From positions 6,758,001-6,822,000 of the forward strand of contig JANJGN010000034.1 of assembly GCA_026770705.1 (NCBI GenBank): DNA of 64,000 nucleotides, read 5' to 3'. Positions 936 through 61,813 of this stretch are shown here, one piece after another (position 1 is the first letter of the stretch; each line of letters begins with the position of its first letter). The notes below the pieces were generated by a model. The model ran no database searches. It saw nothing but the letters and a program-made list of their open reading frames with translations, and was not told the origin of the DNA. The position numbers and the translations under genes were made by a program. The stretch comes from Isurus oxyrinchus (lineage: Eukaryota).

Positions 936-962
936 ATGATCAGCTAAGTTTTTGTCAGGCTG
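936..962 (+). CDS. Micro-exon 1 (27 nt), (D)DQLSFCQA
   Basis: ttttataccag|ATGATCAGCTAAGTTTTTGTCAGGCTG|gtgttt; weak donor but fits the xxxLxxCxx exon class. Confidence 0.6.
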
Positions 963-1087
963 GTGTTTGCAACTTATTTTATTGTGAGATTTATTTTTGC
1001 CGTTGAATCAAAAACATTGCTGTCTCAATTTTATTTGGTTTTATTTAATTTGAACGCTTTCATTTCATTAATGTTCGTTGTTCATAG

Positions 1088-1114
1088 ATGGTGACTTGGA
1101 TAAAAGATATAAAC
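1088..1114 (+). CDS. Micro-exon 2 (27 nt), DGDLDKRYK
   Basis: gttgttcatag|ATGGTGACTTGGATAAAAGATATAAAC|gtgagt. Confidence 0.8.
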
Positions 1115-1389
1115 GTGAGTAAACATAAAATATTGATTTCCACTTTAAACAATCGCAGCCCTTTCACATATTTCTAGGAGTGATTGGGGATTGAGACTTG
1201 AAAGCCTCTAGGCCCGATAAGTTGCGTTATTTGTCCTATACCATACCATTTAGACGTCATCATATTATAGAAATCTTCGAAGACTTTATATCATCTAGCC
1301 AGGCGTGTTAGTACAAATCTATATGTTTGTTTGTTGACTACAGAGTTAGAGTAAAAAACACAACGCAGCAGATAGACAAAGTTGCATGT

Positions 1390-2335
1390 TTCACAAATTC
1401 AACCAGGCATCTGACGTATTGAATGTATTATAGGACATAGCATAGAGTGTTACTGCAGAAGAGACATGTTGTTGAAACTTTTCTGCTTGCACACATGAGG
1501 ACAGATTCGCAAGAATACCAAATGTAAAAGGGCACAACAATTTATGCTTCATGAAAAGACGGCATATAGCATCTGATTGGAAAGAGCCCCTACTATGAGG
1601 CATTTACAAGGGAATAGCTAACTGCCAAGAGGTTGTCTAAATTCTATACAGTCAGGTCGAGACGAATTTCTCAAGGGTTATCAATGGGGAGTGAACCAGG
1701 GAATGGCTGTCCCCCATGCTTTTGCTTAATTGAAAAAGGCGGAATGTATGGAGATGTCTTTCTGTTTGCATTCAAGAGAGTGTTGGTGTGAATGCCATGT
1801 AGCTTCTAGCATGCGTAAGTGATGGTCAGTGTGAGAATGACTGACAATATTTCATTGCTTCTCAGTGTCGTTTTAGCATGTTCAGGATTGCTTCAGGATT
1901 TGTTGTCCAAGCACAGGAACACATCTGATGTTGGATTGTTTTGTTTTTCTCTGGAGTTTGATACCCTCGGCTAACTGATTACGGCGAGTAACCTGATGCA
2001 AAAAGTCGAATAAATGTGCTGTTTAATCCGGACAGCCAGCTTTAGGGAGATACCACATTACCGAAGCAGTGGAATAAATATATCAAACCTGGTGTTCTAA
2101 ATACTGAGACCCCTTTCCTGCAATGTAAACTGTGGTAGGCTGGGCACTTTTTACCACAGAAAGTGGCAGCCTTAGGCCTGCTCGTGAGTTAACTTGATAT
2201 ACTGTGAGCACTGATCTAATTAGCTTTCCCACTATCCACCACATTACCTTGAATGCGTTCTATTTCGACATCAAGCTTGCATCGTGAGCAAATAGATCAG
2301 GCCCAATTTGATTACCTTGCGAAAATGCCCTGTGA
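1390..2335 (-). mobile_element. Decayed Penelope-like retroelement relic
   Basis: Minus strand near 2260-2305 reads RA*SICSRCKLDVEI, matching the RAxxICS..LxxEI motif downstream of Penelope RT; contains stops; boundaries approximate. Confidence 0.55.
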
Positions 2336-4341
2336 ATGCAAGGCAGAATGTTTCATCTGAGTGTTTATTTTTGCAGCAATACTCATGAAATCATGAAAGA
2401 CGTTTGCCAAGATGTTACAAAATAATCTGCTGTCGTCCATTCTAAGATGAAACAAGTAAACGTCTTTATCTTAAGAATTAGAAGCAGTATGCAATTAAAT
2501 TATTATTCGCCAAGTTATTTCATCAGTCTTCCAAGTATGGATAATCTTGTACTCTATACCTGTACAGAGTATTGTATACAACTCTGAGCAAATCTGACAG
2601 TGGCATCCGCTGCCTACTCTCTGAGTTCTGGAATAACATGGAAAATAACTTTCAAAGGATGGCAATCAGTCTCAGACTCACTCAACACCGCCAAAATGAA
2701 CATCTGGGAGAAAGCGAACGCTGCAGAAAGAGAGCTTCTGGAATTCACCTGTTCAATACAATTTCCTTGATTAGCATTGGAAGAATTCATATGGATTTTT
2801 TGCATCTTATCTTTGATTAGGAGTCTGAACAAATTTATTTATTTCTCCGTCTAGTTTGACTGCTGGTCATCCAGCACCATGTGTAAAACAGACTCTGCTC
2901 TTGCTACGTTTTCATCTGATGTTGCTGATAAGCAAATATAATTTACATCATTAATATTTGGAAGTGTTTGCAAACGTGAGATGCGTCTGATTCTGAAATA
3001 AACTCTTGTCAACACAATAACCAAGCACACTTTAGTCAATAATTGCTTCGTTTCTCTACACTACCACTTTGTAAACTCTTCTTGAGCTGTTTTATTTTCT
3101 TTATCTGAGGAGAAACTCAATCAACGTGGCCTTTAAAATATGGCGGAATGAAACACCTTAGATCGAGTTCCAACAATGCTCATCATTTCAATTATTGTTC
3201 TTGTCATCACATATCTTAAAAGTCTTAGGGTGTCCTTTTCTGTAGGACATTCTCTTTGCCTGTATTTTATGCTTCCAGCAAATTGCATGTATGTGATGCA
3301 ACCCCAATGTCGCCAACATGGATGGGACAGATATCCGTTCGATAGGTGGAAAAGGAAATGGCGGGCAAAGCAAATCGCCAGGGCACCCTAAGTACCGAAG
3401 AAAATTAGAGAAAACGGTGCTACAACACTCTCCATCCCTTGAAGTTGGGCATTGTACTTCACCAAATATCATGGCGACATGATGGCAGTGTCATCCACTG
3501 CCTTCTCTCTGAGCTCTGGGAAGACATGGGCGGTAACTTCCTCGGAGTGGCACTAAGCGTCAACGCCACTTAAAACCATTTAATTTGTTCTATTCCTGCC
3601 TTGCCTGACCTTCTGACTCAGGTAAGGTGAGGTCCTGGCAGCACCACTGTCTCCAAAGTCCAGCGTTGCAGTCCAGCAACGTTGAATTGAAATTGGAGAC
3701 ACCCTCTTTTTAGGCATGAGGTGCCCATGAACAAATTAAATTTAAAGGCCCCCTTAAATATGCTGGACCAGCAATACGGAATCTGGATAGAATTTGTTGT
3801 TTGGGGTGTTCGGAGGACAGATGAGGATGGGGGTATGGGATTCGGATATCTGGAGGTGTGTTCAGGAGGGGATGGGATTTGGACATCGGGAGATGGTTGT
3901 GGGGTATGAAGAATCCCGTGTGTTGGGATGGATAGCCAAGCGTCGGGGAGTCCCCTTAGGGGCGGGGCTGTTGGGAGTGCCCCGTGGGGCGATCCGCCTG
4001 GATCATTTTATTTTTTTCTATCCAGAGGTTGGAAGATGTTTTGAGTTCTTGAAACATTTCCTGGGTAACAATTTGTGTAACTCGGTCGGAACCATCGAAG
4101 TTTTTGTTTTAATTCGATTTTTCCCAGCACAACACTATAGCCTAAATTGTGTATGCCCTCCTGGGCAATTGCCCTGCAAATGCAGACTTGTGAAGTTCTA
4201 TCAGGGATTCCCCAGTGCTCCTTTGGTTTACCCCGAATCCAAAGCTGGGGAAGTAGGAAATTATGGTCCCACAAGTCCAAGCCCTTAGTCCTGCAAGCCG
4301 AACCAACTCCACCCCAGCATTCGCCTCCTCCCCCCACATAA

Positions 4342-4360
4342 ACACACACACACACACACA
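4342..4360. repeat. (AC)n microsatellite
   Basis: acacacaca cacacacaca seen directly. Confidence 0.9.
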
Positions 4361-4617
4361 AACTTACTATTTCCTTTCCAGGTCTCTCTTCTTTTAAGAC
4401 TTAACATCTGCCTCGTTGACCTGTCTGTAGATCTAGTCGTGTGGCTTAGTGTCAAAAAGATCAGAATATGCTAATTTTGATTCACACAAAGTGTCACTGA
4501 TGCAGTTTAGACATCTCTAAAATGAGAATGCAGGCTTCATAATTCGAAACAGCTGGATTTTTTTTGTCGTTTGTTTTCATTACAGATAAGTGCTCACTCA
4601 AAATCATTGACTTTCAG

Positions 4618-4644
4618 ATCTCGAGGATCTTGCCGAGAAATTAA
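4618..4644 (+). CDS. Micro-exon 3 (27 nt), (H)LEDLAEKL
   Basis: gactttcag|ATCTCGAGGATCTTGCCGAGAAATTAA|gtaagc; resembles exon 14 (EIEELLENI). Confidence 0.8.
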   Translation: MSRILPRN

Positions 4645-6149
4645 GTAAGCTGTATATATTAATTTGCCTGTAGCGCAGGTTCGTACTCCAGTGGGTAATA
4701 AATAATCACTTTTGTAGCTAATAAGGATCATCAATATTTAAAGGGTAACATTTGCAAGGAAGTGTCCAACAAACATACTAAATATTATAGGATAATGCTA
4801 GATATGTTGACTTCTGTGACACATAGTCTGTGATCGAAATAAATAGCAACTCTGGTTGCGGAGGCTTGCATAATTTCCTCTCGATCCCAAATTAATAAGG
4901 GTCTATACATACTATATCAGCAAAACCATTCATTGAAAATAACGAACGGGCTGGATATTGTCAATGCCGAGAGAATGATTCATCATGCGTGAGGTGCAAA
5001 ATAGTTATGCAAATATATCTTTATAGTAACTAATAGAATACGAAAAGCTACTTTACTCAGCGTGTGGATATAATGTCGAAATAATGTTGGAATAGAGAGA
5101 TGGACATCAATATCTAATAGGAAATTAATGGGCAGAAAACATATTTGGGAGAAGTGAAGATTGTTCACATATCAGGCTCTGTGTTGTAAAATCAACGGAA
5201 TTATCATTAATCTGTCTAGACCAATATCCTCTGTCCTTATCGACCATAATATTTCGATTAACATATAAATTTATGATTATTTCAACATATATTAAAAAAG
5301 TTAATAAATACATTTTGTGCAATGGATTGAAATAAGTATCAAATTGAATTATGGAGTTAGATTCATCATCGTGGTTTGGTCACATGGCTTCACATCTTGC
5401 ACCCTAGGCTGGAAGAGCGATTGACTGCTACGGCAAAGTGACAACGTTTTGCAAGTCCGCTTGATCCTGCAGAGCAGCGGGTTTAATGGCTGAGCTAGTT
5501 AGTAATCGAAAAAAAAAGCATATGAACAAATTCTGAGGGGCTGACCTGAGCAAAAGATGTTCGGTTTCTGTACATTGCTGGCTTAGCTGATAGTTGTGAG
5601 TTAAATTGCCTGCATGTTTAGAAATACTGTGTATTTATCAGTGCAATATCAGGGGCCTGGGAAAGTGTAAATGTGAGAATGAGTGTCGTTGCAATGAATA
5701 ATAACTAGTATAAAATATCATTGGAGCAGCTATAGGTTATCAACTCTCCTGAATAGGTCCAGCCTTGGCATAACTTAATTGTTGACCTTGGCCTGATTAG
5801 CACCACTCTGGCTTGATTCAGCTACTCTTTATAAGGTTGCTCGATTGCTTTAAAGACACTTTAAAATATTGGATATTCGCCCTTTGAGTAGTCAGTTACA
5901 TGATGAAATTTTCCTGATGACAATTTCAAGGCACCGTATATATTCTTCTCCTTGTTTGAATCTTAAAAGAAACAATCTATTACAAAATGCACCATTCATA
6001 GTGCGATATTGAAAAGTGCATATCAATAATTGGGAACTGTTTAAGATGTAATCTAGAAGGTTATAAAGGATTGCTTGTTTATCAGGTAGAGCATTGTTTA
6101 TCTTATTGGACACCACATCAGGAAACAAGAAAAAAATCAAGACATTAGA

Positions 6150-7570
6150 AAGTCTACTAAGGAAGTGAGCCAGGACATTATCTGCTAAAGATAATTATGG
6201 CGTGAGATGGGAAATGTCTATGCAGAAAAAAAAAATAAATAAAGAGTGCAGAATGCTACAAAGTATTCAATTTAAATAAAAAAAATAGATTGGAAGAACC
6301 TCCTGCGGTTTACTCAGAGCATTAAGGATAGCATAGATCAAAGGAAGAGACTTGTGGTGTTGCGCAGAAGAATAGAAAGTCCCAGAATTGGGGATGGTTA
6401 TAAATCAGCAAAGATCGATCAAATATTTTATTTAAGGACACGTGCTGGGGATGGAGTAGTGGTTGTGATGTAATATCAGAGGAAACTTGGCTGATTTCAA
6501 CTGTTCTATCAGTGAAGGAAGAGGAAGTTAATGTTGACCGAGAAAGGAGAAATTATTTTGGGAGGTATGGAATTCTCCAAGTAATTGACCATTTGTTTTC
6601 TATTGTCCTCACAGCAGAAGTTGCACGCCAGAAATAGAGCATAACTTACGATATAAAACGGGAGAGGAAATTGAAATAATTAACATTAGCAGGTTAAAAA
6701 GGGAAAAATATTGAGAAGCTTAAGGAGCACAAATCTGGTGGCCTACTTATCAAACACTAGGTTCATAAAGGATATAGCTGCAGAGGTAGTAGATATGATA
6801 GCTTTGGCTTTCCAAAAGCAATTCTCAGGTTAATAAGGATTCAAACAGATTGACAGGTGGCAAATGTAATGATGCGGTTCAAGAAATGAGGGAGAGAGAA
6901 TTAAGTGTAATACAGGCCAGCTAGTCTGGCACCACTCATATATGGGAATACAGCAAGACTAGGCAATGCACTTAGAAATGATATGCAATGATTAGAATAA
7001 GGCTTTATCAATGAGAAATCCTGCATGAAAATTTATTGAAGATTTTTCAGGATGCAACTAATGGGGATAATTAAGGGGAAATTTTGGATGCAATAAGTTG
7101 TATTTCAACTAGAGTTTGAATGAAATGCCAGGCAAAAATATGATTGCCAAGATATTGGAACATAGCGTTACAGTAATGTATTTGCTTAGAGAGAGGATTC
7201 GTTAAAGGACTGGAAGCAGGTAAGGGACGTAAACTGGGACATATTCAAGTTGCCATGCTTTGACTATTGGAGTGCAGCATCGATAAATTTTGAGGCATGG
7301 GTGATTTAACGTATACACTGAGGAATTAGATGACGAAACAAATACTAATGTTACTAAGAGTCCTGTGGATACAAAGCAATGTCGATGGAAAAGCTGTCGG
7401 GAAGGTACAGCGAGTCTGTAAACGGGCATGGACATATTAAATAATTTGCCAATGGGATGACAGATAAATTATAAGGCGAGGAAGTTCTAATCTGCTCACT
7501 TTTGTCGAAAGAAGTGAAAAATTGTTAGGATATTCAAGATGACCACAGACTTTAAATTATGTAACGTGGA
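6150..7570 (+). mobile_element. Highly degenerate CR1-type LINE ORF2 fragment
   Basis: Remnants of W..ANV...FKK, YRP.SL, KSC..N.L..F and D.TK motifs in order, broken by many stops and frameshifts. Confidence 0.7.
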
Positions 7571-7859
7571 CCTGGTGGCAACTGGGGGAGGATTTGATTA
7601 ATAATATTGACAGAGGGCAGGCTAAGAGCGCCAGGTACTAATAGGGGAAATCTTAATCAGAATATTGCAGGTGCATCAAGAACGTACACACTTAATATTG
7701 CACCACATGATAAGGCTAGCTTTGTGAAAATAATGGCAAGACAGAATAAAACGCGCTGTAGGTGAATGCACAGAACAGATGGTAGATGGATTGATGCCAG
7801 AAATAGAAGTAAACAAGGATGGCATAATTGCAATTTCGGGGACGTGTCTGTAGCGTGAC

Positions 7860-10330
7860 CATGGTTGGGAACATATTTTTTTCCACATTAGGAAATATAA
7901 ACAATCGATAAGGAAGTGGAATAGCACTTGTATGGTTCTGATACATTAGTGAGAGAGGGTCTTAGATCAGAACTTGAATATGTAGGATCCAGTTGAGTGG
8001 AACTAAGAGAGAACAAAGTGCAGAAAATAGTTGGCTGTTATTGTTTATGGACCACCAGAGAGCAATGGTAATATAGAGAATGGTACAAATAAGCAAGCTA
8101 GAGGTGCATGTAATAAGGTTGATGCAGAGTCAATGGGGAGTTCGATGAACATTTTGGCGGGGGAAACCGAATTTGCACTAAGATGGTGGAGGTGCAGGTG
8201 TTGGAATGTATGTGAGGTGATTTGCTTTCCAATTTTTTTTGGAGGAGCCAACCCAACTAGGAAACGCGTTACTTCATAACCAGTATTGTTCAATGAGAAA
8301 GAAATGATTAATATTACTGTGGTAAAGAAGCTTTTTGGGAAGGGTGAACATCAGATGAAGAAACTGTTCATGAAGTCTGAAAGCGATAGAGCTCAATCCT
8401 GAACAATGGTAATCAATCTACATATGAGCTAATTAAATTATATAAGGGAGAAACTGACGGTGGAAGGTTAGCAATCTATTTTGTAATGTGCAGCAGTAGA
8501 CATGCAATGAATAACAATGCAATAATTAATATGTAGTTGCAAACAAAAGCCCAGTAGGAAAGGTGAATAAACCATTGTTTACAAGAGTAGCTAAAATGAA
8601 TTACATCAAAGGAAGCTGGTTGGAGACGTTGCCAGAAGGAATTAATAAACAGGAGGGTTGGGAGCATTTTATAATACAGTAGCAACGAAGCAAAAAAAGA
8701 AAATAACTGTTAAAGAAAGTGAAACAAGAACATGGAAATAAATTGTAGGGAAGCATTAATAATGGAATTCACAGACTGATAGTTGTGCAAACAGGACAAG
8801 GTTAACAAAACCAAATTCATATCGAAGAGGCAAGATAATGTGTAACGTCCATCTTCATGGAGGAAAACACAAAGTAAAACAAATAAACTTCCAAGGAAGA
8901 TGAAAGAACTAGCGAGAATAAGGAATTGAACAAATTTGTATTAGCAAATCAAAAAGTAGCAATGGAAAAATGTGTGAGAGTTAAAGTTCATCAATTTCCT
9001 TGACATATATTCCAGATGTGGAAGGCGTGGCTTCTGAGATAATGGATGCATTGGTGGTCATTCCGCTAACCGAAACCATTACTGGAGCAGCCATATGAAT
9101 ACTTTGGTTGCAAGAGCAGCTCGGATGCTCGGGATTCTGAGGCGAGAAACTGACCTTCGGTCTCCCAAACGCTGTCCACAGCATTCAATGCACAAGGCAG
9201 GACAGTGATGGAATACGCTCAACTTGCGTGAATGAGTGCAGCTCCAACAACCTTCAAGAAGCTTTACATGCACGAGGACAAAGATTCCCGCTTGAGTGAA
9301 ACCTGATCCACCATCCTAAACCTTATGTCCCTCCACCAATGACGCAGCAGTGTGCAACATGTCCAAAAAGCACTGCAGCAGATCTCCTATGGGTCTCCTT
9401 CGATAGTACCTTCAAAACCATTACCTGTTGCCTGTCAACATTATCACATTTTCGTCGATATCGAAGCCAGGCAACTTCCTCCTTTGGGAACATACCAACG
9501 TTCCAAAAACTGTAGCTGCATAACAATGCTGGACTTCCTTGCTCACAGCACTGTGTGTGTTCGTTCTACTTGTGGACTGAAGAGGTTCAAGGCGGAGGCT
9601 AAGCACGACTTTCTCAAAGACAATTAGGCATAAACCATAAAGGATGGTCTAGCCAGCCAGATCCATATCTTAAGGTCAAATATAAATAACTATAACAATG
9701 GCTTCTGGAGGGATCCCAGCAGAATAGAATGTAGCATATGGATCCCCGCTGAGAAGAAAAGAAGGAGAGAGAAAACAAAGCACTGAACACCTGTGAGTCT
9801 GACATCAGTTGTTGGGCAAATGCTGGAATCTATTATAAAGGGTCTGATAACTGCATATTTAGACAATAATGATAGGATTCAGGAGGGGCAGCGTGGATTT
9901 CTGAAAGGGGAATGGTGTTATGAACATGTTGAAGTTCTTTGTGGATGCAGCTGAGCTGAGTAATCCAGGGCGGAGCAGTTCACAGGATGTTAGGAAGCAA
10001 CATTAGAGCCCAATAAATTCAAATAATATACTGGACTAGATTGAGAATTGGATAACGGACAGAAAGCAGGGATTAAGGATAAACGGGCTATTTTCATATT
10101 TGCAGGCTGTCCTTAATGTGGACTCGCAAGGAGCGGTTCTTGGACGCCCGATATTCATAGTGTATATCACTAATATGTATTTGGGGCACGATTGTAAGTT
10201 CCCAGGAACTAAACATGTTATAGGATAATGGGTCCAGCAGGAAAATGGTGTAGAGGTAGAAGATCAGCCATGATGGAGAAATGCGGAGACGGACCTCGGG
10301 GCCGAAGTACCAATTCCTGTTGTCATTTTT
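7860..10330 (+). mobile_element. Degenerate CR1-type LINE (endonuclease to 3' UTR) interrupted at about 9075-9670 by the 3' end of a second LINE family
   Basis: VIVYGPP endonuclease-like peptide at 8031; later QRGF.KG..C and W..DRKQ RT remnants; CR1-like tail gatcagccatgat...attcctgt; the insert carries the gtgatggaatac...gagtgcagctccaacaac motif. Confidence 0.7.
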
Positions 10331-10469
10331 TTGTAGCTCTGAAGGACAAAAAAAAACTAGGTCTAATGCGCGAATAATCAGCGTGTTTGTGCACAATATA
10401 ATTGGCAACAGAAGCAGAGTATAATGGGAATATTATGACGATATTGTTGGGAATATTTTGATTCAGAAG

Positions 10470-10590
10470 ATGATTGATGATGGTGATATTCATTATTATT
10501 ATCATCATTATTATTACTCTTGCGTTCATTATTGTTATTATCTTCATTATTGTTCGTGATATTATTATTTTTATTACTCTTATTATTAAT
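10470..10590. repeat. Degenerate (ATT/ATC)n low-complexity tract just upstream of micro-exon 4
   Basis: cattattattatcatcattattattact... seen directly. Confidence 0.85.
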
Positions 10591-10612
10591 TTGAATATGT
10601 TTTTTTTTCCAG

Positions 10613-10639
10613 TCGCAGCAATGCTGGCAAAAGATAAAG
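10613..10639 (+). CDS. Micro-exon 4 (27 nt), (I)AAMLAKDK
   Basis: tttttttttccag|TCGCAGCAATGCTGGCAAAAGATAAAG|gtaaat. Confidence 0.85.
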
Positions 10640-13219: not shown

Positions 13220-13255
13220 AAATACGCAAATTGAAGAATGCTTTGGAAGACAAAT
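13220..13255 (+). CDS. Micro-exon 5 (36 nt), EIRKLKNALEDK
   Basis: cttcttttccccccag|AAATACGCAAATTGAAGAATGCTTTGGAAGACAAAT|gtgagg; paralog of exon 16. Confidence 0.88.
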
Positions 13256-49562: not shown

Positions 49563-49589
49563 AACGACAACTCAGGAAGTGTGTGAGAG
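49563..49589 (+). CDS. Micro-exon 19 (27 nt), ERQLRKCVR
   Basis: ttttcttttgtcag|AACGACAACTCAGGAAGTGTGTGAGAG|gtaaac. Confidence 0.87.
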
Positions 49590-50352: not shown

Positions 50353-50379
50353 AGAGTGGAGGCCCAGATAGAAGTAATG
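50353..50379 (+). CDS. Micro-exon 20 (27 nt), ESGGPDRSN
   Basis: cttcttttgctag|AGAGTGGAGGCCCAGATAGAAGTAATG|gtgagtaga; same 3' junction as exon 23. Confidence 0.87.
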
Positions 50380-51145: not shown

Positions 51146-51221
51146 CAAAAACAGAATTACCTGGAAAAACTCAGCAGGTCTGGCAGCATCTGCGGAGAAG
51201 AAAAGAGTTGACGTTTCGAGT
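51146..51221. mobile_element. Single-arm copy of the young palindromic element
   Basis: 76 bp nearly identical to 32623-32698 (one mismatch seen). Confidence 0.85.
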
Positions 51222-51307
51222 GGCATGGCAGAGTTGTTAACACATTTTAAACCTACAGGACGTTAAGAACAGTGCCAATGAAAAGAGGATATTGCCTAAG
51301 GAATAGT

Positions 51308-52310
51308 ATGGGTCAGTGCTGGGGCCACAATTTTTCACTTTATACATTAATGTTCTAGATGAAGGAATTGAGGGCATCCTGGCTACGTTTGCAGATGATA
51401 CAAACATAGGTGGAGGGACAGGTAATATTGAGGAGGCGGCAAGGCTGCAGAAGGATTTGGACAGGTTAGGAGAATGGGCAAAGATTTGGCAGATGGAATA
51501 CAACGTGGGGAAGTGTGAGGTCATGCACTTTGGTAGGAAGTATAGAGACATAGACTACTTTGTAAATGGGGGCAGAATTCAGAAATATGTTGTGCAAAGG
51601 GACTTGGGAGACGCAATCCAGGATTCTCTTAAGGTTAACCTGCAGGCTGAGTCGGTAGTTAGGAAGGCAAATACAATTTTGACATTTATTTCGAGAGGAC
51701 AAGAATATAAAAGTAGGGCTGTGCTTCTGGAGCTTTACAAGGCTCTGGTCAGACCACATTTAGAATACTGTGAGCAATTTTGGGCTCCGTATCTCAGGAA
51801 GCTTGTGCAGGCCCTGCGGAGGGTCCAGAGGAGGTTCACGAGAACGATCCCAGGAATGAAAGGCTTAACATATCAGGCATGTTTGAAGACTTTGGGTCTA
51901 TACTCGCAAGAATTTAGAAGGATGAGCGGGTAACTGATTGAAACTTACAGAATACTCAAAGGCCTGGATAGACTGGATGTGGGGAAGATATTTCCATTAG
52001 TATGAGAGACTAGGACCCGAGGGCACAGCCACAGCATAAAGGTAAGACCTTTTAGAACACAGATGGAGAAAATTCTTAAGCCAGAGGGTGGTGGATCTAT
52101 GGAATTCATTGCAACAGAAGACTGTCGAGGCCAGGTCATTGATTGTAATTGTGATCGAGGTAGATAGGTTCTTGATGGGTAAGGGGATCAAATGTTATGT
52201 AGAGAAGGCGGGAGATTGCGGTTGAGAAACTTATCAGCCATGATTGAATGCTGGAGCAGGCTCGATGGGCCGAATGGCCTAATTTATGCTCCTATGTCTT
52301 ATGGTCTTAT
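51308..52310 (+). mobile_element. 5'-truncated, relatively young CR1 LINE with open RT C-terminal frame (51316..51933) and 3' UTR
   Basis: SVLGP..F.LYIN, FADDT, LQKDLDRLGEWA..WQMEYNVGKCEVMHFGR and LYKALVRPHLEYC.QFW.PY motifs; tail cctatgtcttatggtcttat; possible TSD gaatagt at 51301-51307 and 52311-52317. Confidence 0.95.
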
Positions 52311-53941
52311 GAATAGTTTACATAGAATACTTGTAAACGTTTGTTTTTTTTTAAATTATGATTGCCCAGAGGTTCATTTTTAATATGGTTTGTTAGGATT
52401 GCTACTGCTATTTTTGATGTGTATCAATTGCCTGATCTTGAATATGAATTTTTCTAGAGTTTTAAATTACATTATCTAAATGCCAGAGATACCAGTTTCT
52501 TTGGCAGCAGAAGCAGATAATGTAATATTTTACACAGAAGTGATATCAGATAATATTCCCTGCATGGCAAGATCTTACATTCCGGAATGCTCTGTCCATA
52601 ATTAAAACTGTTAAGTTTGGAGACCTTGCGACTCTCTGATTTGATGCAGATAATGAGGAAAATTATATCAATTACTAGTAAAATGGGCCCAATAGTGTAA
52701 CGTGATACTTAACATAGAGACGTCAAAAGGGGTTTTTTTTTTAGGAATGACAATAGCAAAACAAGTGTTAAGGAGCAACTAGGAACGATTCTGCATGAGC
52801 CACATTAAGTTGAATTGGGAAAAGGTGACATATTACCGTAAGGTAAAAAGTGTCCCCAATCATTGGCTCTATTAATGTTGGAACGTTTCTTAAAATAAAT
52901 AAAAATTGAACGCTAGCATATAAGTCACAGGGGTTTGCATGTGCATATTTGTCCTCTGGAAAGATGCTTTGCACAATATGAAATGGCCTCCGAATGAATA
53001 CAGCATAGATTTATTGTGTTCCAGGACAACACAAATGGGGGTCATCAGGGATGGTGTTCTGGGGGTGGTGGTGGTGGCAGAGGTTCACCAAAGATGAAGT
53101 GGGGAACCACCCCATCGCCACCCAACAACCCCCATCGCCACCCCAACCCAGAAATTCGCAGGCAGGAATTGCTATTCAATGGCCAGGCAAGAGAAATCTT
53201 CACATGGCAATTACCCTGCGATGGGGAGCATCTGAAATTGAGAATTAAATGGTACACTTCGGATCATTCAGATTGTATTACATCAAGTGTTTCCCAGAGA
53301 ACTTTGAATAATTAAAACCATGTCCACCTTCTTGGGAACATCCTGCTGACAGGAATAGAAATCAACCTCACTCTTGTTCATACTCCACTTCCATTTCCAT
53401 TTTACTTGCTCAGATAAATCATTGTTTTAGGCGATGGGTACACTTAATATTTTAGATTGTTATATTTGACGGAATATCGAAAACAAAAAAAATGATCCTC
53501 CACAATACGGAGTGAGTGCTACACCATCGGAGGTACATTAATTTCAGCGAGAGATATAGAAAGGTAGAGAGATAAATCAGACAGGAATGGATGTTTCATA
53601 TAGATGAATGTAGAGGGTAGTAATCGAAACTGGTAAATGAAAATGAACACAGATACTGTTGTGTTATTGAGAATGCCTTTAAGTCTAAAATGTAATTTTG
53701 CATTTTATTTGTTTTTTGTGAACGAAGCTGTGACATGTCAAACAATGCTTTCACAAGATCAATTAGCTGAACTGTCACTAATTTCAAATGTTCGAGCAAG
53801 CAGTCCGTTGATTGATATCAGAAAGCTGGTTGTGCCAATGGTCTTGACAACGAGAAAGTAAACAGTGACACATGTTATCACACTTTCCGCGTTTGTTGAA
53901 CACTGTCGGGTTGATGGGAATCATTGTTGTTTTCTATCCAG

Positions 53942-53977
53942 AGATAGCGAAGCTGAAGGAAGATCTGAATGATACAG
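53942..53977 (+). CDS. Micro-exon 21 (36 nt), EIAKLKEDLNDT
   Basis: gtttttctatccag|AGATAGCGAAGCTGAAGGAAGATCTGAATGATACAG|gtgcaa; weak donor but clear paralog of exons 12 and 24. Confidence 0.85.
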
Positions 53978-54602
53978 GTGCAAATACGAATTGACATCAC
54001 TGCTTACGCGCTGATAGACTTCTGATGGAAGGCTGCAAATTTACAACCGCTAAGCCTTTGAAAGCATTTAAGTAAATGCCTACATTAATTTCAGTTACAT
54101 TGTAATTCCTAGTAACAATTTCAAAACGATGGGTCTCAATTTAACTTAAACATTTCATCCAAGGTTTCTGTTCAGCGTTTTCAGCGCTGCAGTGTTTATA
54201 TTGGAGTGAATAACATCATGATTCAGACAGTCTATAAAACCTCTGTAGTGTAAGTTATATTACATATATATACTTCTGCGGTATTTTTCGATTAGTTATT
54301 AATTGCTAATCATTTTTTTTATTGTAAATTGACAATGCTGGTAAAAATCTTACAATGTCTAAACAACAGATGTTGATTACCATTTAATATGAATCTTTAA
54401 ATATTAACAAACTCAACAGCTGATGTAATCAGTAAGACAACTGCGTTAAATATTAATTATAAATGCCGTACAAATGAATATCATTAATTTGCTAATCCTC
54501 AAGTAATTCGAATTATCATTAATAACCTGCTGATCCGCTGATGCTACGATAAATAACACAATTTAACATTCTTTAGTATTAATAATCAACTTTATTACGT
54601 AG

Positions 54603-54629
54603 AATCCAAGCTGAGAAAGTGTGAGCAAG
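54603..54629 (+). CDS. Micro-exon 22 (27 nt), ESKLRKCEQ
   Basis: ctttattacgtag|AATCCAAGCTGAGAAAGTGTGAGCAAG|gtacat. Confidence 0.85.
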
Positions 54630-54757
54630 GTACATAGGGTACATTGTTGTGATTTCAATAACAGCATCCTTCTAGTAATCCTTTTCTGTAAGACGTTTTC
54701 TTTACATTATAAAAATTGTATATAGATTATCAGTTAATTGCGTTTTTATAATCTTAG

Positions 54758-54784
54758 AGCTGAAAGGTCGACCTGATGAAAATG
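54758..54784 (+). CDS. Micro-exon 23 (27 nt), ELKGRPDEN
   Basis: tttttataatcttag|AGCTGAAAGGTCGACCTGATGAAAATG|gtgagtaga. Confidence 0.87.
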
Positions 54785-55299
54785 GTGAGTAGATAAGATC
54801 GGAAGTGAATTATATGCTAAGTGGAAACTGGCACGCAAACTTTCAATTTACTGTAATGGATTTGATCATCTCCCAAAAGGTAACAGCTTAAGGGGCAGGC
54901 AATCCGACTGACCTCTGCTGTACCTTCGGAGTATGTTCTGTTCCAAAGATTATACGCATATATTTGATAATGGACACACGGATTCAGGAAGGATTAGAGA
55001 GTCATGAAGAGAGAGAAAGAGAGGGGGAGTCGTGGTGAGGTGTAGAGAGAGAGAAATTTGTGATTAATACAAATCAATGCTGAAATTATCCATAACAAGG
55101 AATGGCACATTGTGCGCAAATTCTTCAGCCATGAATGAAAAAATAAAACAATTGATTTAATGTATTCAAATTGCAATATTTTTTTCGCCTTTTGCTCTGT
55201 CTTGCAACCATTCAGATTGTTGGGCCCTCGGGAAGCATGTTATGTTTCCATCTATCAAAGACTGAATTGCCACAGAGAGTGCCAAATGCTTTTATTGTT

Positions 55300-56870
55300 A
55301 TTTGTTTTCGTGGAACATAGCCAGAATTTATAGTCCATCTTTAGTTGCCCTTCAAAAAGTGGTGGTGAGCGGTCTTCTTGATCTGCGGCAGCTAATGTGC
55401 TGAAGGTCCAACTACCATCTTGTTAGGGAGGGGTACTAGGATTCTAACCCAGCAACAGTGAAGGAACGGCGCCATACTTCCACATAAGAATGCTGAGTGA
55501 CATAGCGGGAAAATTGCAAGTGTGGTGTTACCATCCATCAACTCTCCTTGTCCTTCTAGATTATAGTAATGGTCGGTTTGGAAGGTGCTGTCTCAGGAGA
55601 CTTGGCAAATTCCTGGAGCACTCTTTTAGATGGTAAACAATGCTGCTACAGTGTGTGGGTCATCGTTGGTGTGAGTGCTTGTGAATGTGGTGCCAAACAA
55701 GTCGGCTGCTTTCACCTGGATGGTGTCAAGCTTCTTGAGTGCTGTGGGAGCTGCACTCATCCAGAGTTATGGAGCATATTCCATCAGATTCCTTACTTGT
55801 GCCTTGTATATAGCGGGAAAGCAATGAGCAGTTAGAAGGTGCGTTACTAGCCAAAGGATTGCTACCCTGTTACCCGCTGTTGCAGCCAGAATATTTATAT
55901 GGCCAACCCAGTTCTGTTTCAGGTCAATGGTAACAGCAAGGATGTTGATAATGCGGGATTCAGCGATAGTAAATTCATTGAATATCACGGGACGATAATT
56001 AGATTATCTCTTGTTGGGGAAGGTTATCCCCTTGCACTTGTGTGGGCCGAATGTTCACTGTTATTTGTCACCCAAAGCCTGGCCATTGTTGAGGTCTTGC
56101 TGCCAGTGGACATGGACTGCTCCAGCATTTGAATAGTCGCAAATGGTGCTGACCACTTTGCAATTATCAATGGACATCTCCACTGCTTACCTTATGATGG
56201 AAGGAAAGTTATTGATGAAGCAACTGACGGTTGTTGGGACGAGAACACTACCCTGAGGAACTATTTCACCGATGTCCTGTAGCTGAGTTGCCTGACCTCC
56301 AGCATCCACAGCAATCTCCCTTTGTGATATATGTGAGTCCAGCCAGGGGACAGTTTTCCCCCAATTCCCATTGATCCCAGTCTTGGTACTGGCCCTCGAT
56401 GTCACACTCGGTCATTTGCAGACTTGATGTCCAGAACAGTCACTTTCACTTCACAACAGAAGTTCAGCACTATTGTCCATGCTTCAACAAAGGCTGTGAT
56501 GAGGTGAGGAGCTTAGTGGCCCTGGCATAACACAAACTGTACGTCAGTGAGGCAGTTATTGCTAAGCAAGTGCCACTTGTTTGCACTATTGATGATCGCT
56601 TCCATTACTTAACCAACGATTGAGAATAGACTGATGGTGCTCTAATTGGCTCGGTTGGATTTGTTCTGGTTTTGGGTACATGACGTGCCAGGGCAATTTC
56701 CCACATGGGCAGGTAGATACCAGTGTTGCAGCTCCAATGGAATAGGTTGGCTAGGCGTATGGCAAGTTTTAGATTGCAAGTCGTGAGTACTATTGCCAGA
56801 AAACTGTGAGGACCAATAGTGTTTGCAGTATCCATGGTCTTCAGCCATGTCTTCATGGCACGTGATGACC
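55300..56870 (-). mobile_element. Degenerate LINE (second family) RT and 3' end
   Basis: Minus ORFs contain VPQGSVLVPT..SCFINN.PSII, IYKAQVRNLMEYAP and TGIYLPMWEIA. Confidence 0.9.
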
Positions 56871-56969
56871 ATTCTAAGAAACGCACATCAATATAAAGCC
56901 ACTTATCACACTGACAATGCTTTTAATCAGGTAATCGGCTTATTTATGCAACTTTGATCTCTATTACAG

Positions 56970-57005
56970 AGGTAGCACGGTTGAAAGAGGATCTTCAAGA
57001 CACAG
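56970..57005 (+). CDS. Micro-exon 24 (36 nt), EVARLKEDLQDT
   Basis: atctctattacag|AGGTAGCACGGTTGAAAGAGGATCTTCAAGACACAG|gtatga. Confidence 0.9.
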
Positions 57006-57072
57006 GTATGAATGCTTGCCGGTGATTCACACCCAGTTCTACACGATTATACCACAACAAAAAACCTTATGG

Positions 57073-57440
57073 TTCTTCTTCTTCTTCTTCTTCTTCTTCT
57101 TCTTCTTCTTCTTCTTCTTCTTCTTCTTCTTCTTCTTCTTCTTCTTCTTCTTCTTCATATTCTTCTTCTTCTTCTTCATATTCTTCTTCTCTTCCTTCTC
57201 CTTCTTCTTCTTCTCCTGCTTCTTCTTCCTTTTCTTCTTCTTTTTCCCTTTTCTCCCCCTTCTCCTCCTAATCGCCTCCCACTTATTCCTCTTCTTATCC
57301 TTCCTCTCCTCTTTCTTCTTCTTTGTCTTCTTCCCCTTCTTCTGTTTCGTCTTCTCTTCCTCCTTCTCCTTCCACCCCCTTCGTTTTCTTATTCTTCTTA
57401 TGCTAATACTTTTCCTTCTCCTTGTTCTTCTTCTCACGTT
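57073..57440. repeat. (TTC)28 perfect repeat (57073-57156) followed by a degenerate polypyrimidine tract
   Basis: Seen directly; explains the poly-L, poly-F and poly-K ORFs. Confidence 0.95.
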
Positions 57441-57843
57441 CATTCAGATCGTCGCAATGCTTTGTGTTTTTCACTTCGCCATCTCCTTTTATCTACTGTG
57501 CCTTCCAATCTCAATGCGTTTACGTGTCCCAAAAATATATCTTTCTCTCTGGCATTATTCCTCCCTCATCTCACTTCTGTCCCTGGCAGACGCATCTTCA
57601 TCAATCGTCCTACCTCATTCACCCTCTCTCTCATTAGTTGATGATATAAAACTTGATATGTTTTCTGGGTAGTTTCTTGAATTTCTCACAATCATCACTG
57701 ACATGTTGATGTGCTGGTCCCTGATAATATTATTTAGTGTCATTTCGCACATTAAACCCGGGGTCTTCATGATATTCAAATCCCCTCTTTGTTTCTTCAT
57801 TTTTTAAATGTTGCCCATCTTTATGCAAGTTATAACAAGTCTC

Positions 57844-58011
57844 AGAATTACCTGGAAAAACTCAGCAGGTCTGGCAGCATCGGCGGAGAAGAAAAGAGTT
57901 TTCTTCTCCGCCGATGCTGCCAGACCTGCTGAGTTTTTCCAGGTAATTCTGTTTTTGTTTTGGATTTCCAGCATCCGCAGTTTTCTTTGTTTTTATTTTT
58001 TTTCTTTGTTT
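57844..58011. mobile_element. Young palindromic insertion (same family as 32.7 kb) with 14-bp TSD
   Basis: 53-bp perfect arms 57843-57895 and 57899-57951 plus a T-rich tail; flanked by ttataacaagtctc at 57830-57843 and 58012-58025. Confidence 0.88.
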
Positions 58012-58284
58012 TTATAACAAGTCTCGTTCCACATCCTTCTCGCTGATCAACCATTCAGTTCCGGCAATTATTTTCAAAAAACACTTCACTATTATGATTC
58101 ATTATTTTTCATTTCCTTTCATCCATCTTCTGCCAGCAATGACCCCAGGAGCTCTACTCAGCACCCTGTCTCCAAATATTCACTTAAAATATTTACTCTG
58201 CCACATAAATCTAAGCTAACAAATCGATACACTTGCTATATGTTTTTTACTAGTGATGTCAGTGGCAGATGAGAAAATTTTATT

Positions 58285-61200
58285 TTTCTTTATTCAATGG
58301 TCGGATGTGGGTGTTACTGTCCAGGCCAGGTTGTATTGCCCATTCATAATTGCCCTTGATAATGTGCCGATGACCTGCCTTCTTGAAGCATTGTGGTGTA
58401 GTTGCACCGATAATGCTGTTAGAGAGGGTGTTCCAGGATTTGAACAAAAGGACAGTGAAGGAACTGCCCTTCTAAGCCAAAATGGTTGTAAGCTTGGAGA
58501 GGGTCTTCCAGATGAGGACATGACCAGGTTTCTGCTGGCCTGTTCCTTCTACATGGTAACGCGCATGCATTTGCAAGATGCTGCCTCAGGAGGCTTGGAG
58601 AGCTAATGCAATGCATCGTGCAGGTTGTATCGACATCTGATCCTGTAATTCGATAGTGGAGGAAGTGATTTTTGAGCAGGGGGTGTTAATCAAGGGGACT
58701 TTTTTATCCTGGGTGGTGTCAATCTGCTTGGACTTTGCTGGAAATGTGGTCATCCAGGCAAGTGGAGTGTTTGGTATCACACGCATGAAATGTGCCATTT
58801 AGATGTTCGACAAACTTTGGAGAGTCAAGAGTTGAGTTGTTCGCCGCAGGATTCTTAAATCTGATCTCTTCTTGTAGCCATATGGCTAGTCCAGCTCAGT
58901 ATGTGGGCAATGGTAACCTCCCAGTAAGTTCATAGTTGCTGTTTAAGGCTGGTAATTCGAATGAATGAATGGCAGTGGTTAGGTTCTCTATTGTTGGAGA
59001 TGATGACTGCCTGGCATTTGATCAGCGTGAATGTTACTTGCACTTACCAGTGCACGATTGGGAATTGTCCAACCCCTGTTGCATTTGTACAAGGATGAAA
59101 CCATTTTCTAAGCAGTCAGGAAAGTTGCTGAATACTGTGCAAAAAGCAGCGAACATCCCAATACCTGAACCTATGATGGACGGCAGGTCATTGGTGAAGT
59201 AGCTGAAGCTGCTTGAGACTTGGAAATAAACTGAAGTAACTCAACTAGTGTTGTCTGGAACTGCAGGGTTGACTTCGAACAAACACAACCAACACGCGAT
59301 GTATGGCTCCAACAAGTGGAGAGTTTCCCATTTTTCCCCTGGACTCCAGTTCTGCTTGGACCCCTTGATGCAACATTCGGTAAAAAAAAAAAGCTGCCTT
59401 GATCCCAAAGGCAGTCGCGCTCACATCATATCTGAAGTTTGGCTTCTGTTCGTTTTTTCTTGTTCACCAAGCCTGTAAGCAAGGCAGAATCTGTGTAGGT
59501 CTGGCGAAACCAGGACTGAGCGCCAGTCGTGAATTTATTGCAAAGCAAGCTCTTTTTGATGCATCTTTGTTGGCCTCTGATGTGTGTGATATGAAACTCT
59601 CCACTTGCCTGGATGACCACATTTCCAAGAAAATCCCAGCAGATTAACACCACCCAGGATAAAACAATCCGCTTGATTAACACCCCCTGCTCAAACATTC
59701 ACTTCCTCCACTATTGAATCACAGCAGCTGATGTCGCTACAACCTACACGAAGCATTGCAGTAACTCACCAAGCCTCCTGAGGCAGCACCTCAGGGGAAG
59801 AAATTGGCAGGTTTGGAATTCTGCTGCTTTTTGCCTACAGAACAAACCTGAGCAATGTTGCACATTTCCGGGTGGATGCCAGTGTTACAGCTGTTCCGAA
59901 AAGCTTGGCTAGGAGCAGTGAAAGTTCTGAAGTGCAGATCTTCAATTATATTTCTGGTATATTGTCAGGGACCATGGCCTTTTGCAGTTTCCAGTGCATT
60001 CAGCCATTTCTGGACATTACTTGGATTGAATCGAACTGGCTTTGCTGCTTGGAACCAAAGGAGGTAGCCGAGATTTGCCGGCCATCCAACACACCTGAAA
60101 GAAGATTGTTGTAAAGGTTTCAACGTTAAATTCACAGTGACGCATTGTGCTCACCAATCATGCAGGAGGAAAGCATTTGTGAAGCCTCCTGCTTCAGTGA
60201 GTTGCTTAGATTTACTTATCCTTCACGATTGGATGTCGCAGGACTATTGAGCTTAGATTGCATCAGTCACCTATGGAATCCCGGTAGTTTGTCAGTTGTT
60301 GCTTTGCACAAAATTTGTCCTGTGCTACCACTTCACCAGGTTCATACCTAATACTTGGGGATGCCTGATTCTTCTCCTGGCATACTGTCCTGAACTCTTC
60401 ATTGGGCTAGGGTTGAGACCCTGTCTTGTTGGTCATGGCAGAATGTCCAAAATGCCCTTTCGTTAGGTGACAGATTGTGGTGCTGCTGAGGGCCCAAAGC
60501 ACCTCATGTTTTCCCCGTCTTCACTTGCTACATATCTTCGTAATATACACATTTTGCAGCGTGCAAGTGCCAAACAGCACATTGGTGGGGATCCTCAATG
60601 TGAACCTGGGACTTATTGGAACCCACAAGAGCAGTGTGGTCGCCACTCCTGCATGGACAAGTTCATCTATTACATGCAGGTTGACAAGGATGAGTCCAAG
60701 TAAGTATCTAATTTCTATGGCTGGTACGCTCATCAAATGTGAAAGACCGAGTCCAGCAGTTATGCCAGCTCGGTTTGAAGTGGTGGCATTGAAGTCCCAA
60801 GGTACATTCATGCACTTACCAACATTAGTGTTTCCTCCAAAACTGGTGGCAAACATGGGGGAGTACTCATTCATCAGCTCAGGGGATCGGTAAATGATAA
60901 TCAGAATGCGGTTTTCTTGCCTGTGTTTGACCTGATGCCGTGAGAAATTCAGGCATATCCGGCTCACTCCCGATTGCGTCGCACAATGCCACAATCTCTG
61001 CTGGGTCCGCACTGGGCCAAGACATACCAAAGGATGTTGATGGTGCCAGGGGCATTACCTGAGTGGAAAGTAGCTTGGCGAGCCTGAAAAATTCTAAATG
61101 ATGCTGTTGGTTGACAAATCGCCTGGGTCGACATGGCTGAGTTTGCCATTGTTGTTTCCGGTGTTAATGTCAGTGCCAGGCCGTTTGTCTGGTTTTATTG

Positions 61201-61440
61201 TTCTTAGGCGTTTTACCGGATTGATGCACCTGAATGGATTGCAATCGATTTCATAGTGTAGTCAGGACTGAAGCACATTGCTTGGGTCTGAGGTCAGATG
61301 TAGGCCAGTTCAGATTTTCCAGATTTCTTTTGAACTAAAATTTCACCAAATGACTGTGGTGGGATTCGTAACTAGGAAACCAGACCATTAACCTGGGTCT
61401 TTTGTTTATCAGTCCAATTACTTCTATGCCTCTGCCAACC
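58285..61440 (-). mobile_element. Degenerate near-full-length LINE (second family) with tRNA-SINE-like 5' end and an internal inverted segment
   Basis: Endonuclease-like remnants (ILIIIYRSP, DFN, LLGLILVNL.V in ORF 60521..61030); colinear with the other copies; SINE-like head at 61230-61440. Confidence 0.75.
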
Positions 61441-61786
61441 GCAGCTGTTGACAAGATTACTTATGATTTTGTCATTATTATCCAGTGAATGATTTAAATT
61501 GACTTCATAATATCAGTTAGCGTGCATCATCATGGATCAATAATGAGTTGATCGACACTTGTCATCGTATATAAAACAGAGGGGATGCACCTAATTAAAT
61601 ACTTATTAATTATTATTATCACATGCTATTAACTTTCGCTATTATGCATTAATTAATATTTAGTTCTGTGCCAAGTAATTATCTCAGCAGCGTTTAAGTA
61701 CTGCATTCATAAATATTCCATGGAGAGGTAGGTGCACCTATCCATTGCCAAGCATTCAACATTAAATATTTGCAATTATTATTTAG

Positions 61787-61813
61787 AAAACGATCTTTGG
61801 AAGTGCCAGGAAG
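61787..61813 (+). CDS. Micro-exon 25 (27 nt), ENDLWKCQE
   Basis: attattatttag|AAAACGATCTTTGGAAGTGCCAGGAAG|gtaaga. Confidence 0.86.

Follow-up and report, generated by a model that had tools for sequence, protein, structure and literature searches.

The 64,000-nucleotide stretch of shark DNA analysed here (the window; positions 1..64000, + strand) is an internal slice of a gene, gene A, which occupies about 6.459-7.497 Mb of contig C34. The reading that we favour, and to which we give about an even chance, is that gene A is one gene of about 1.04 Mb whose micro-exons are spliced in genomic order. Its product would be an intracellular, self-pairing rod with a B30.2 head, an expanded form of the butyrophilin/BG heptad-exon tail.

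Between positions 936 and 61813 the window contains 26 AG/GT-bounded phase-1 segments, 19 of 27 nt and seven of 36 nt. They total 765 nt, or 1.26% of the span, and are separated by introns of 125 to 9295 nt. When spliced in silico, the 26 exons form 254 whole codons without a stop in the phase-1 frame; the other two frames have 22 and 32 stops. The first-pass annotation had correctly taken these segments for real 27/36-nt phase-1 exons with a stop-free joined frame, and its intron range is reproduced exactly. Its count of 25 exons (738 nt) and its 246 codons have to be replaced by the numbers given above. The features are listed below with their state in a paralogue, B, which lies 1.1 Mb from gene A, has 81% DNA identity to it and keeps the splice sites and the frame.

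936..962, + strand: 27-nt phase-1 micro-exon, orthologous exon in B; donor weak here (GTGTTT vs GTAAGT in B)
1088..1114, + strand: 27-nt micro-exon, kept in B
4618..4644, + strand: 27-nt micro-exon, kept in B
10613..10639, + strand: 27-nt micro-exon, kept in B
13220..13255, + strand: 36-nt micro-exon, 97% identity to B
13595..13621, + strand: decayed 27-nt slot with in-frame TAA and acceptor GAG instead of CAG; intact in B
13787..13813, + strand: 27-nt micro-exon, Pro/Gly-containing, kept in B
14269..14295, + strand: 27-nt micro-exon, identical in B
15623..15658, + strand: 36-nt micro-exon, kept in B
16509..16523, + strand: possible 15-nt exon, uncertain, with weak acceptor; identical in B; outside the count of 26
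17808..17834, + strand: 27-nt micro-exon, kept in B
18566..18592, + strand: 27-nt micro-exon, kept in B
18902..18928, + strand: 27-nt micro-exon, splice sites lost in B
20018..20044, + strand: 27-nt micro-exon, kept in B
21334..21369, + strand: 36-nt micro-exon, kept in B
22252..22278, + strand: 27-nt micro-exon, kept in B
22636..22662, + strand: 27-nt micro-exon, kept in B
25465..25491, + strand: 27-nt micro-exon, kept in B
34018..34053, + strand: 36-nt micro-exon, kept in B
43349..43375, + strand: 27-nt micro-exon, kept in B
48188..48223, + strand: 36-nt micro-exon, kept in B
49563..49589, + strand: 27-nt micro-exon, kept in B
50353..50379, + strand: 27-nt micro-exon, Gly/Pro-containing, kept in B
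53942..53977, + strand: 36-nt micro-exon, kept in B
54603..54629, + strand: 27-nt micro-exon, kept in B
54758..54784, + strand: 27-nt micro-exon, acceptor lost in B
56970..57005, + strand: 36-nt micro-exon, kept in B
61787..61813, + strand: 27-nt micro-exon, in a region without alignment to B

The decayed slot at 13595..13621 is presumably skipped in splicing. The Pro/Gly-containing exon 13787..13813 and the Gly/Pro-containing exon 50353..50379 are likely hinges.

The same exon lengths recur outside the window. From 24 window exons a splice-site matrix was derived and applied, at a threshold of 15, to 499 kb of flanking sequence. On the + strand it makes 37 calls at 27 nt and another 37 at 36 nt, with a stop codon in one of these 74, while 0-5 calls fall on each remaining length between 9 and 60 nt (50 lengths). 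On the minus strand there are only 3 and 4 calls at 27 and 36 nt, which rules out the equal abundance there that the first-pass annotation had named as the sign of chance hits.

The exons are conserved between the two copies. The AG is kept in B at 54 of 55 exons (404 of 588 in the control) and the GT at 51 of 55 (348 of 588). No indel separates A and B in 53 of the 55 exons, compared with 427 of 588 control segments, and a stop has been gained in 2 of those 53 exons vs 78 of the 427. With the exon set called on B, the A-B dN/dS is 0.46 (95% 0.35-0.61); with the set called on A it is 0.41 (0.31-0.54), and the B30.2 exon gives 0.45. A pairwise dN/dS of about 0.45 points to only moderate constraint.

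Gene A, at about 6.46-7.50 Mb, extends far beyond the window on both sides. The most 5' exon found, at C34:6459146, is 299 kb upstream of the window, and the terminal B30.2/SPRY exon, C34:7496442-7496962, is 738 kb past the window start. The gene had been put at 61 kb; that stretch is a part of about 1,040 kb and includes neither the start nor the end. At the 5' end as found, starting from C34:6459146, lie about seven phase-1 exons of 21 nt, the first of which has an ATG in frame. Outside the window there are at least 200 further micro-exons besides these. In 566 kb of the gene 134 exons were called vs 7 on the minus strand, and samples of 114 kb further 3' gave 36 vs 6, up to 15 kb before the B30.2 exon. 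The total is estimated at 250-300 micro-exons, an extrapolation across some 338 kb of unread sequence in the 3' 474 kb beyond 7.022 Mb; it would be near the exon count of titin, 363. Some calls elsewhere in the gene are 15, 18 and 24 nt long. With the 21-nt exons, they limit to the window the strict 27/36-nt rule proposed for the gene.

The search of the flanks for a B30.2 exon, suggested in the first-pass annotation, was successful: such an exon ends the gene. It is a single exon with a phase-1 acceptor, a stop codon and an intact frame, and it is the only B30.2 match within the span of gene A. Pfam SPRY is matched on the terminal exons of both A and B; Pfam PRY is not reported.

The micro-exons appear to encode a heptad rod. 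In the 36-nt exons (n=52) the core positions 1, 4 and 8 are hydrophobic in 85-94%. A 36-nt exon and a 27-nt exon together give 21 residues, exactly three heptads, and a 36+27+27+27-nt unit gives 39 residues, or five heptads and a four-residue stutter. The genomic order of the exons beats shuffled orders for coiled-coil periodicity in three separate segments, and in six tests of 1000 shuffles each, between 2 and 18 of the shuffles reach the real order. This order-dependent periodicity, the core hydrophobicity and the dN/dS of about 0.45 bear out the proposed coiled-coil gene as real and constrained. A search of the ESM Atlas with the rod of one relative returned generic coiled coils only, below 0.9. 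The single-sequence AlphaFold model of a 945-residue relative, of low confidence (pLDDT 55), has mostly long helices, with the B30.2 domain unfolded. Also considered was the stalk of a CD23-like C-type lectin (27+36 = 63 nt), abandoned because the terminal exon is B30.2.

The proposed protein would be built as follows. Micro-exons that are all symmetric and in phase 1 would encode a very long amphipathic helix, followed by the single terminal B30.2 exon. The rod could reach about 2,600-2,900 residues, roughly 400 nm, if every exon is used. The working form would be a parallel, self-pairing coiled coil inside the cell with paired B30.2 heads at one end, a predicted tether or avidity scaffold which would bind a protein ligand via B30.2. 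It may be likened to the cytoplasmic tail of chicken BG or zipper protein, or to a TRIM without the ligase. The rod would change in length as exon cassettes are duplicated in tandem, decay or are skipped, and the frame would stay unbroken.

Contig C34 carries five B30.2 exons of the family type. In a quick, unfinished tree of 144 rows, which leaves out rows with more than one B30.2 or a match below 120 aa, the family forms a separate, long-branch clade of 27 rows (SH-aLRT 99), and the B30.2 of gene A groups apart from shark butyrophilins. The clade includes database models from six cartilaginous fishes, without RING, B-box or Ig according to regex-based domain labels that missed some Ig proteins. 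Pfam, run on 10 of the clade's 20 database proteins, found coiled coil and SPRY only (RING/B-box in 0/10). The relatives are mostly short models named TRIM39/58/69-like, A33-like, nuclear-pore anchor-like or butyrophilin-like, and these names are misleading; class IV TRIMs are their source. The family is lineage-restricted and mis-annotated, as had been supposed. The longest have 945 and 1697 residues, the latter well below the length estimated for A. Database isoforms in three species differ by 9-, 7- and 6-residue cassettes. When the B30.2 exon alone was used in a word-index search of proteins, no longer protein was returned. The full-text literature searched, which excludes subscription journals and supplements, contained no account of the family.

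Among the matches listed for the B30.2 exon of B there is no RNA dataset. Three possible RNA runs and a DNA run supplied contigs for comparison with the last 9.5 kb of A. RNA-contig cover falls mostly on repeats and is zero in the two bins containing the greater part of the B30.2 exon; the bin across the end of this exon is covered, and there the DNA depth is also raised. The DNA run covers 30 of 30 bins, with about 97% identity in unique parts.

The exon set is known from genomic sequence comparison alone, which leaves room for chance splice-like matches or repeat relics in place of exons. This explanation has hardly any probability left and is effectively refuted: the flank excess, the A-B conservation, the core hydrophobicity and the exon-order shuffles each reject it separately, and 38 of 38 and 35 of 43 matches in genome-wide pattern scans fall on the one contig. 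It is improbable, to a lesser degree, that gene A is a recently 5'-truncated or fading duplicate in a functional family, no longer made in full after its true first exons were lost. A does lack a 241-kb segment that B has just upstream of A's first found exon, and in B this segment, at C34:4.850-5.091 Mb, holds at least one further 21-nt exon (about 224 kb of it are unread). The window has one dead exon and one weak donor, and the quick tree assigns the difference between the two B30.2 exons to the branch of A (0.086 vs 0 on B), which may mean relaxed constraint on A. However, only one of 74 strong calls has a stop, and at 81% intron identity the copies are of an age at which a gene dead for long would show many stops (78/427 in the control). 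Exon loss within the window is mutual, A having lost one slot and B two, the B30.2 frame of A is intact, and the in-frame ATG of the first remaining exon is kept in both copies.

The first exon and promoter of gene A were not found in the read sequence. If an anchor exon stood at the N-terminus, alone or together with an ectodomain, the rod would be fixed to a membrane and the coil and B30.2 would lie in the cytoplasm, as in a butyrophilin/BG-like receptor or an organelle tether with a giant tail. We regard this as rather unlikely, though likelier than the fading copy. The arrangement of 21-nt phase-1 exons at the 5' end and one B30.2 exon at the other end agrees with that of butyrophilin/BG genes. 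Among solved structures, BTN3A1 B30.2 domains are nearest to the B30.2 profile and also give the best PDB matches by sequence, and an anchor could sit in the unread 5' segment of B. The 1697-residue Callorhinchus relative begins with about 14 mostly hydrophobic residues and a basic cluster, but this N-terminus is a gene-model prediction and the remaining long relatives begin directly with the coil. No butyrophilin-type V exon was found on C34 at 2.7-7.5 Mb in a non-exhaustive search that missed two nectin-like V exons; the best ones in the genome are on contig C21. The region 6.396-6.545 Mb of C34 has no V motif, and Pfam found no family in 93 of 93 plus-strand ORFs of 6.424-6.460 Mb (95 of 167 listed ORFs scanned). 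The 22-kb 5' block shared by A and B has no convincing TM exon conserved in both, and their read 5' regions contain neither RING, B-box or V-set motifs nor significant tblastn matches to the N-termini of relatives. Candidates at 6440410, 6452174 and 6457995 for TM or signal exons lack support from the splice pattern or conservation in B. A nectin-like IgV exon at C34:6424336, considered as the ectodomain and rejected, is broken by a stop and frameshifts. The shared block, which starts at 6.4337 Mb, does not include it, and an intact twin lies 17 kb beyond the B30.2 exon of A, so that it is most likely part of the neighbouring gene. Less probable still is a secreted fibrous protein, linked by disulfides and headed by B30.2, with a structural or defensive role. 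Cysteine makes up 4.0% of the gene A rod, mostly at core positions, at which the chains of a parallel coil meet (position 4 in 22 of the 52 36-nt exons), and would there also suit extracellular disulfides. However, the long database relatives have only 1.4-1.6%. Two relatives have hydrophobic N-termini, but that of the skate appears to be a translated intron before a 27-nt exon. The read 5' regions have no signal-peptide exon, and the B30.2 domains of butyrophilins are described as cytosolic (PMC6790196).

The intracellular rod with a B30.2 head has several partial counterparts. Schistosome micro-exon genes share the runs of short symmetric exons, which can be skipped in frame; they encode small secreted proteins not known to have a B30.2, and no homology is implied. 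Enterophilin-1 is a soluble mammalian protein with a long leucine-zipper heptad rod and B30.2, not known to have Ig or RING, and far shorter; its likeness to the predicted product of gene A is by analogy only. It is described as interacting with sorting nexin-1 (PMC13749957). Class IV TRIMs (RING-B-box-coiled coil-B30.2) share a coil with a single-exon B30.2 and tandem clusters (PMC2657112), whereas no RING or B-box was found in the read 5' regions of gene A; the fish TRIM coils described there have 96- and 234-nt exons, not micro-exons. Butyrophilins (BTN/BTNL) also have short heptad exons followed by B30.2 (PMC6790196, PMC4046983), but those described have few such exons and, in addition, Ig domains and a TM segment. 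Chicken BG, like the intestinal zipper protein, has a coil tail of many tiny exons that vary in number between tandem paralogues and are missed by automatic annotation (PMC4046983), as in the shark family. The BG genes described differ in having 13-36 exons of 21 (or 24) nt and an IgV, TM and tail followed by a 3'UTR exon. Gene A has an estimated 250-300, mostly 27/36 nt, and a terminal B30.2, with no Ig or TM exon found. The first-pass annotation had not recognised the gene as a butyrophilin or BG gene. The heptad-exon and B30.2 design of gene A is closer to theirs than was supposed.

Tentatively, and at somewhat less than an even chance, cartilaginous fishes may have a third, undescribed B30.2 branch beside TRIMs and butyrophilins. 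Its largest members would be single megabase transcription units with 250-300 coding micro-exons and rods of about 3,000 residues, tuned in length by cassette splicing in heptad-preserving units, and annotation would catch only the last few hundred residues. If transcribed as we infer, gene A would be among the most exon-rich genes known, with nearly all of its exons below the length that standard aligners can handle. At least five members of the family fill much of 4.8 Mb of one 20-Mb contig, and most of their database relatives are short and misnamed as TRIM ligases. The butyrophilin/BG heptad-exon module would here be enlarged about tenfold over chicken BG, with a different unit of 12+9 residues. 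The family would provide a natural test of the ordered splicing of hundreds of consecutive micro-exons and of exon duplication as the means of setting rod length, and with it the cartilaginous-fish gene set gains a B30.2 family that is unstudied and occurs in chimaeras as well as in sharks/rays.

There is little doubt that the gene in the window, gene A, belongs to a real, constrained family encoding a coil and a B30.2 domain. The first-pass annotation had proposed 25 exons of 27 or 36 nt, joined into 246 codons. The lengths, the phase 1 and the absence of stops held, but curation with a paralogue 1.1 Mb away on the same contig, gene B, raised the count to 26 exons (19 of 27 nt and seven of 36 nt, 765 nt in total), with the intron range, 125-9295 nt, unchanged. 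Joined, these exons read through 254 codons in the phase-1 frame without meeting a stop, whereas the other frames contain 22 and 32. The splice-site matrix was trained on the clearest window segments, and the window scan (16 matches at 27 nt and eight at 36 nt on the + strand, at most three for each other length or strand) was in sample. The fair test is the out-of-sample scan of 499 kb of flank, which gave 37 calls at each of the two lengths on the + strand, 0-5 at each other length within 9-60 nt, and three and four on the minus strand. An in-frame stop interrupts one of the 74 flank calls. With 74 calls against seven in the strand comparison that had been suggested as a check, it is extremely improbable that the window segments are chance matches.

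Constraint is seen against gene B, which shares 81% DNA identity with A across 174 kb. Of 55 exons called on B and aligned to A, 54 kept the AG, 51 the GT and 53 the length, compared with 404, 348 and 427 of 588 controls, which were low-scoring AG..GT segments; a stop was gained in two of 53 exons and in 78 of 427 controls. The dN/dS ratio between A and B is 0.46 (0.35-0.61) for exons called on B, 0.41 (0.31-0.54) for those called on A and 0.45 for the B30.2 exon. This constraint and the out-of-sample excess bear out the micro-exons as real. One slot is lost in A (13595) and two in B (18902 and 54758), with splice-site decay at each; symmetric cassettes permit such mutual loss.

The window occupies C34:6758001-6822000 (C34 is contig JANJGN010000034.1) of a 4.98-Gb genome, and its exons span about 6% of a gene of about 1.04 Mb, so the 61-kb span does not stand as the whole gene. 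A continuous read of 6.456-7.022 Mb (566 kb), made with a caller that recovers 22 of the 26 exons curated in the window, gave 134 micro-exon calls on the + strand versus seven on the minus strand. Samples further 3' (114 kb) gave 36 versus six, and the micro-exon grammar reaches as far as C34:7,481,158. The flank scan for domain exons, which the first-pass annotation had advised, found B30.2 as the terminal exon.

Outermost exons found in gene A, and B30.2 exons of its family
from C34:6,459,146, + strand: most 5' exons found in gene A, 21 nt each, sparse
C34:7,496,442, + strand (7.496 Mb): terminal exon of gene A, phase 1, open frame, intact 172-aa B30.2/SPRY domain; the next long exon after the micro-exons
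C34 6.396 Mb: B30.2 exon of B, 92% match, open frame
C34 4.817 Mb: B30.2 exon of a further copy, C, 58% match, open frame
C34 3.474 and 2.709 Mb, minus strand: two family B30.2 exons, 44-45% match, open frames
C21 (another contig) 89.72 Mb and 91.348 Mb: two further family B30.2 exons

By extrapolation across about 338 kb of unread 3' half, gene A would hold some 250-300 micro-exons and encode a rod of about 2,600-2,900 residues. Near-identical exons recur at five places in 7.016-7.131 Mb, a sign that the gene grew as blocks of several exons were duplicated in tandem.

A whole-genome search with two consensus patterns placed 38 of 38 and 35 of 43 matches on C34, clustered and on both strands; control patterns gave two and six. 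Every C34 micro-exon cluster, assigned from position and strand, heads towards one family B30.2 exon. Two same-strand 27-nt matches on C21 (90.54 and 91.02 Mb) suggest that another very large micro-exon gene may span 90.5-91.35 Mb and end at 91.348 Mb. On that contig, B30.2 exons (more than 100) cluster within 82-118 Mb together with the majority of butyrophilin-type V exons; this is probably a TRIM/butyrophilin, MHC-linked region. A single match to the 21-nt exon pattern at C136:1232957 (minus strand) reflects either chance or a fragment of the family.

A quick tree of 144 B30.2 domains (quick search, midpoint root, sample biased to matches of the query) groups the seven genomic exons with 20 database proteins in a single long-branch clade (SH-aLRT 99), separate from proteins with RING or Ig domains. 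Callorhinchus, Leucoraja, Scyliorhinus, Narcine, Cetorhinus and Hemiscyllium supply the named members, and the putative C21 gene shares a subclade with a 945-aa catshark model. Pfam found only SPRY above cut-off in the ten clade proteins searched. Most of the 20 are 130-460 aa long; two, of 945 and 1697 aa, have long coils. Isoforms differ by nine residues in three species and by six and seven in one species each, which, in these database gene models, fits micro-exon skipping. The closest proteins in the database comparison come from cartilaginous fishes, to which the family is limited among the relatives found; the first proposal of a lineage-specific coiled-coil gene is supported, with B30.2 added. 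A full-text literature search found no published account, and the family is apparently undescribed.

The micro-exons are enriched in Lys, Leu, Asp and Glu codons. Among 36-nt exons (n=52), 85-94% carry a hydrophobic residue at each of positions 1, 4 and 8; among 27-nt exons (n=71), 73% do so at position 3. A 36+27 pair encodes 21 residues, or three heptads; a 36+27+27+27 block, found in the window, encodes 39, arithmetically five heptads and a stutter. The hydrophobic stripe in genomic exon order was matched by 6 and 18 of 1000 shuffles in the window, 2 and 3 of 1000 for exons 5' of it and 2 and 5 of 1000 for exons 3' of it. This test, which speaks to neighbouring exons, is the best evidence that the micro-exons are probably spliced in order into one continuous coil.

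At the 5' end, a segment of 241 kb present in B (C34:4850373-5091193) is absent from A, just upstream of its first found exon, and a 17-kb read of it revealed another 21-nt exon (C34:5084784). Gene A may therefore be shortened, and the family's first exon may lie inside this segment. The first remaining exon of A has an in-frame ATG in both A and B. A nectin-like V exon at 6.424 Mb (C34:6424336), considered as part of gene A, is broken and most likely the neighbour's; an intact one (Pfam V-set) lies at C34:7513562, 17 kb beyond the B30.2 exon of A. Both probably mark a neighbour gene caught in the duplication. Between B and A lies also a rhodopsin-family 7TM gene fragment (C34:6415857-6416582; Pfam 7tm_1, below cut-off). 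Two database relatives, P0151 (skate) and P0035 (elephant shark), have hydrophobic stretches at the N-terminus; that of P0151 reads as a translated intron before a micro-exon, for this family likely an annotation artefact.

The window repeats are of SINE and CR1 types, which we take to be shark-like. A reverse-transcriptase fragment of a CR1-type LINE (51237-51933) keeps a 208-codon open frame. An intronic element at 58576-59791 resembles a non-autonomous DNA transposon: two arms of about 215 nt, inverted and 86-89% complementary, enclose about 800 nt. Near-perfect hairpins, of 106 nt at 98% and 53 nt at 100%, arise within introns from two head-to-head pairs of one SINE-like repeat (32615-32827 and 57843-57951) and could affect splicing or editing. 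About 120 units of degenerate (TTC)n (57073-57434), 68 nt after exon 56970, give rise to spurious long ORFs.

The function we infer has about an even chance of being right: rod chains would pair with themselves in the cytosol and carry B30.2 heads, the whole working as a tether or avidity scaffold whose length would be governed by exon number and exon skipping. Enterophilin offers an analogy to this layout. Its partner is SNX1 (PMC13749957). A membrane-anchored tail of butyrophilin or BG type is unlikely. In its likely working, gene A resembles the heptad-exon tails of butyrophilins and chicken BG. Chicken BG genes carry 13-36 exons, each 21 nt long, and one BG tail, zipper protein, controls actin-myosin in the brush border (PMC4046983); in butyrophilins, several very short heptad exons precede B30.2 (PMC6790196), their number varying in squamates (PMC12841164). 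The stretch from the B30.2 exon of B to the first 21-nt exon of A yielded no Ig, RING, B-box, TM or signal exon, and the C34 micro-exon gene cluster no butyrophilin-type V exon. With no Ig domain found and a B30.2 clade of its own, gene A is kept outside both groups; the first-pass annotation did not recognise it as either, and the likeness to their tail design is nearer than it had assumed. Nor is it a TRIM gene, since RING and B-box were not found and its coil lies in micro-exons, whereas fish TRIM coils are encoded by 96- and 234-nt exons (PMC2657112). It is rather doubtful that A is a fading, 5'-truncated copy; the B30.2 change between A and B falls on the branch of A in the quick tree, which counts against A. 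A secreted, disulfide-linked fibre is still less probable; Cys makes up 4% of rod residues, mainly at core positions, which would suit it.

The architecture has precedents. What would surprise a specialist is the scale, a gene of about 1 Mb with hundreds of coding micro-exons, and several such genes in tandem.
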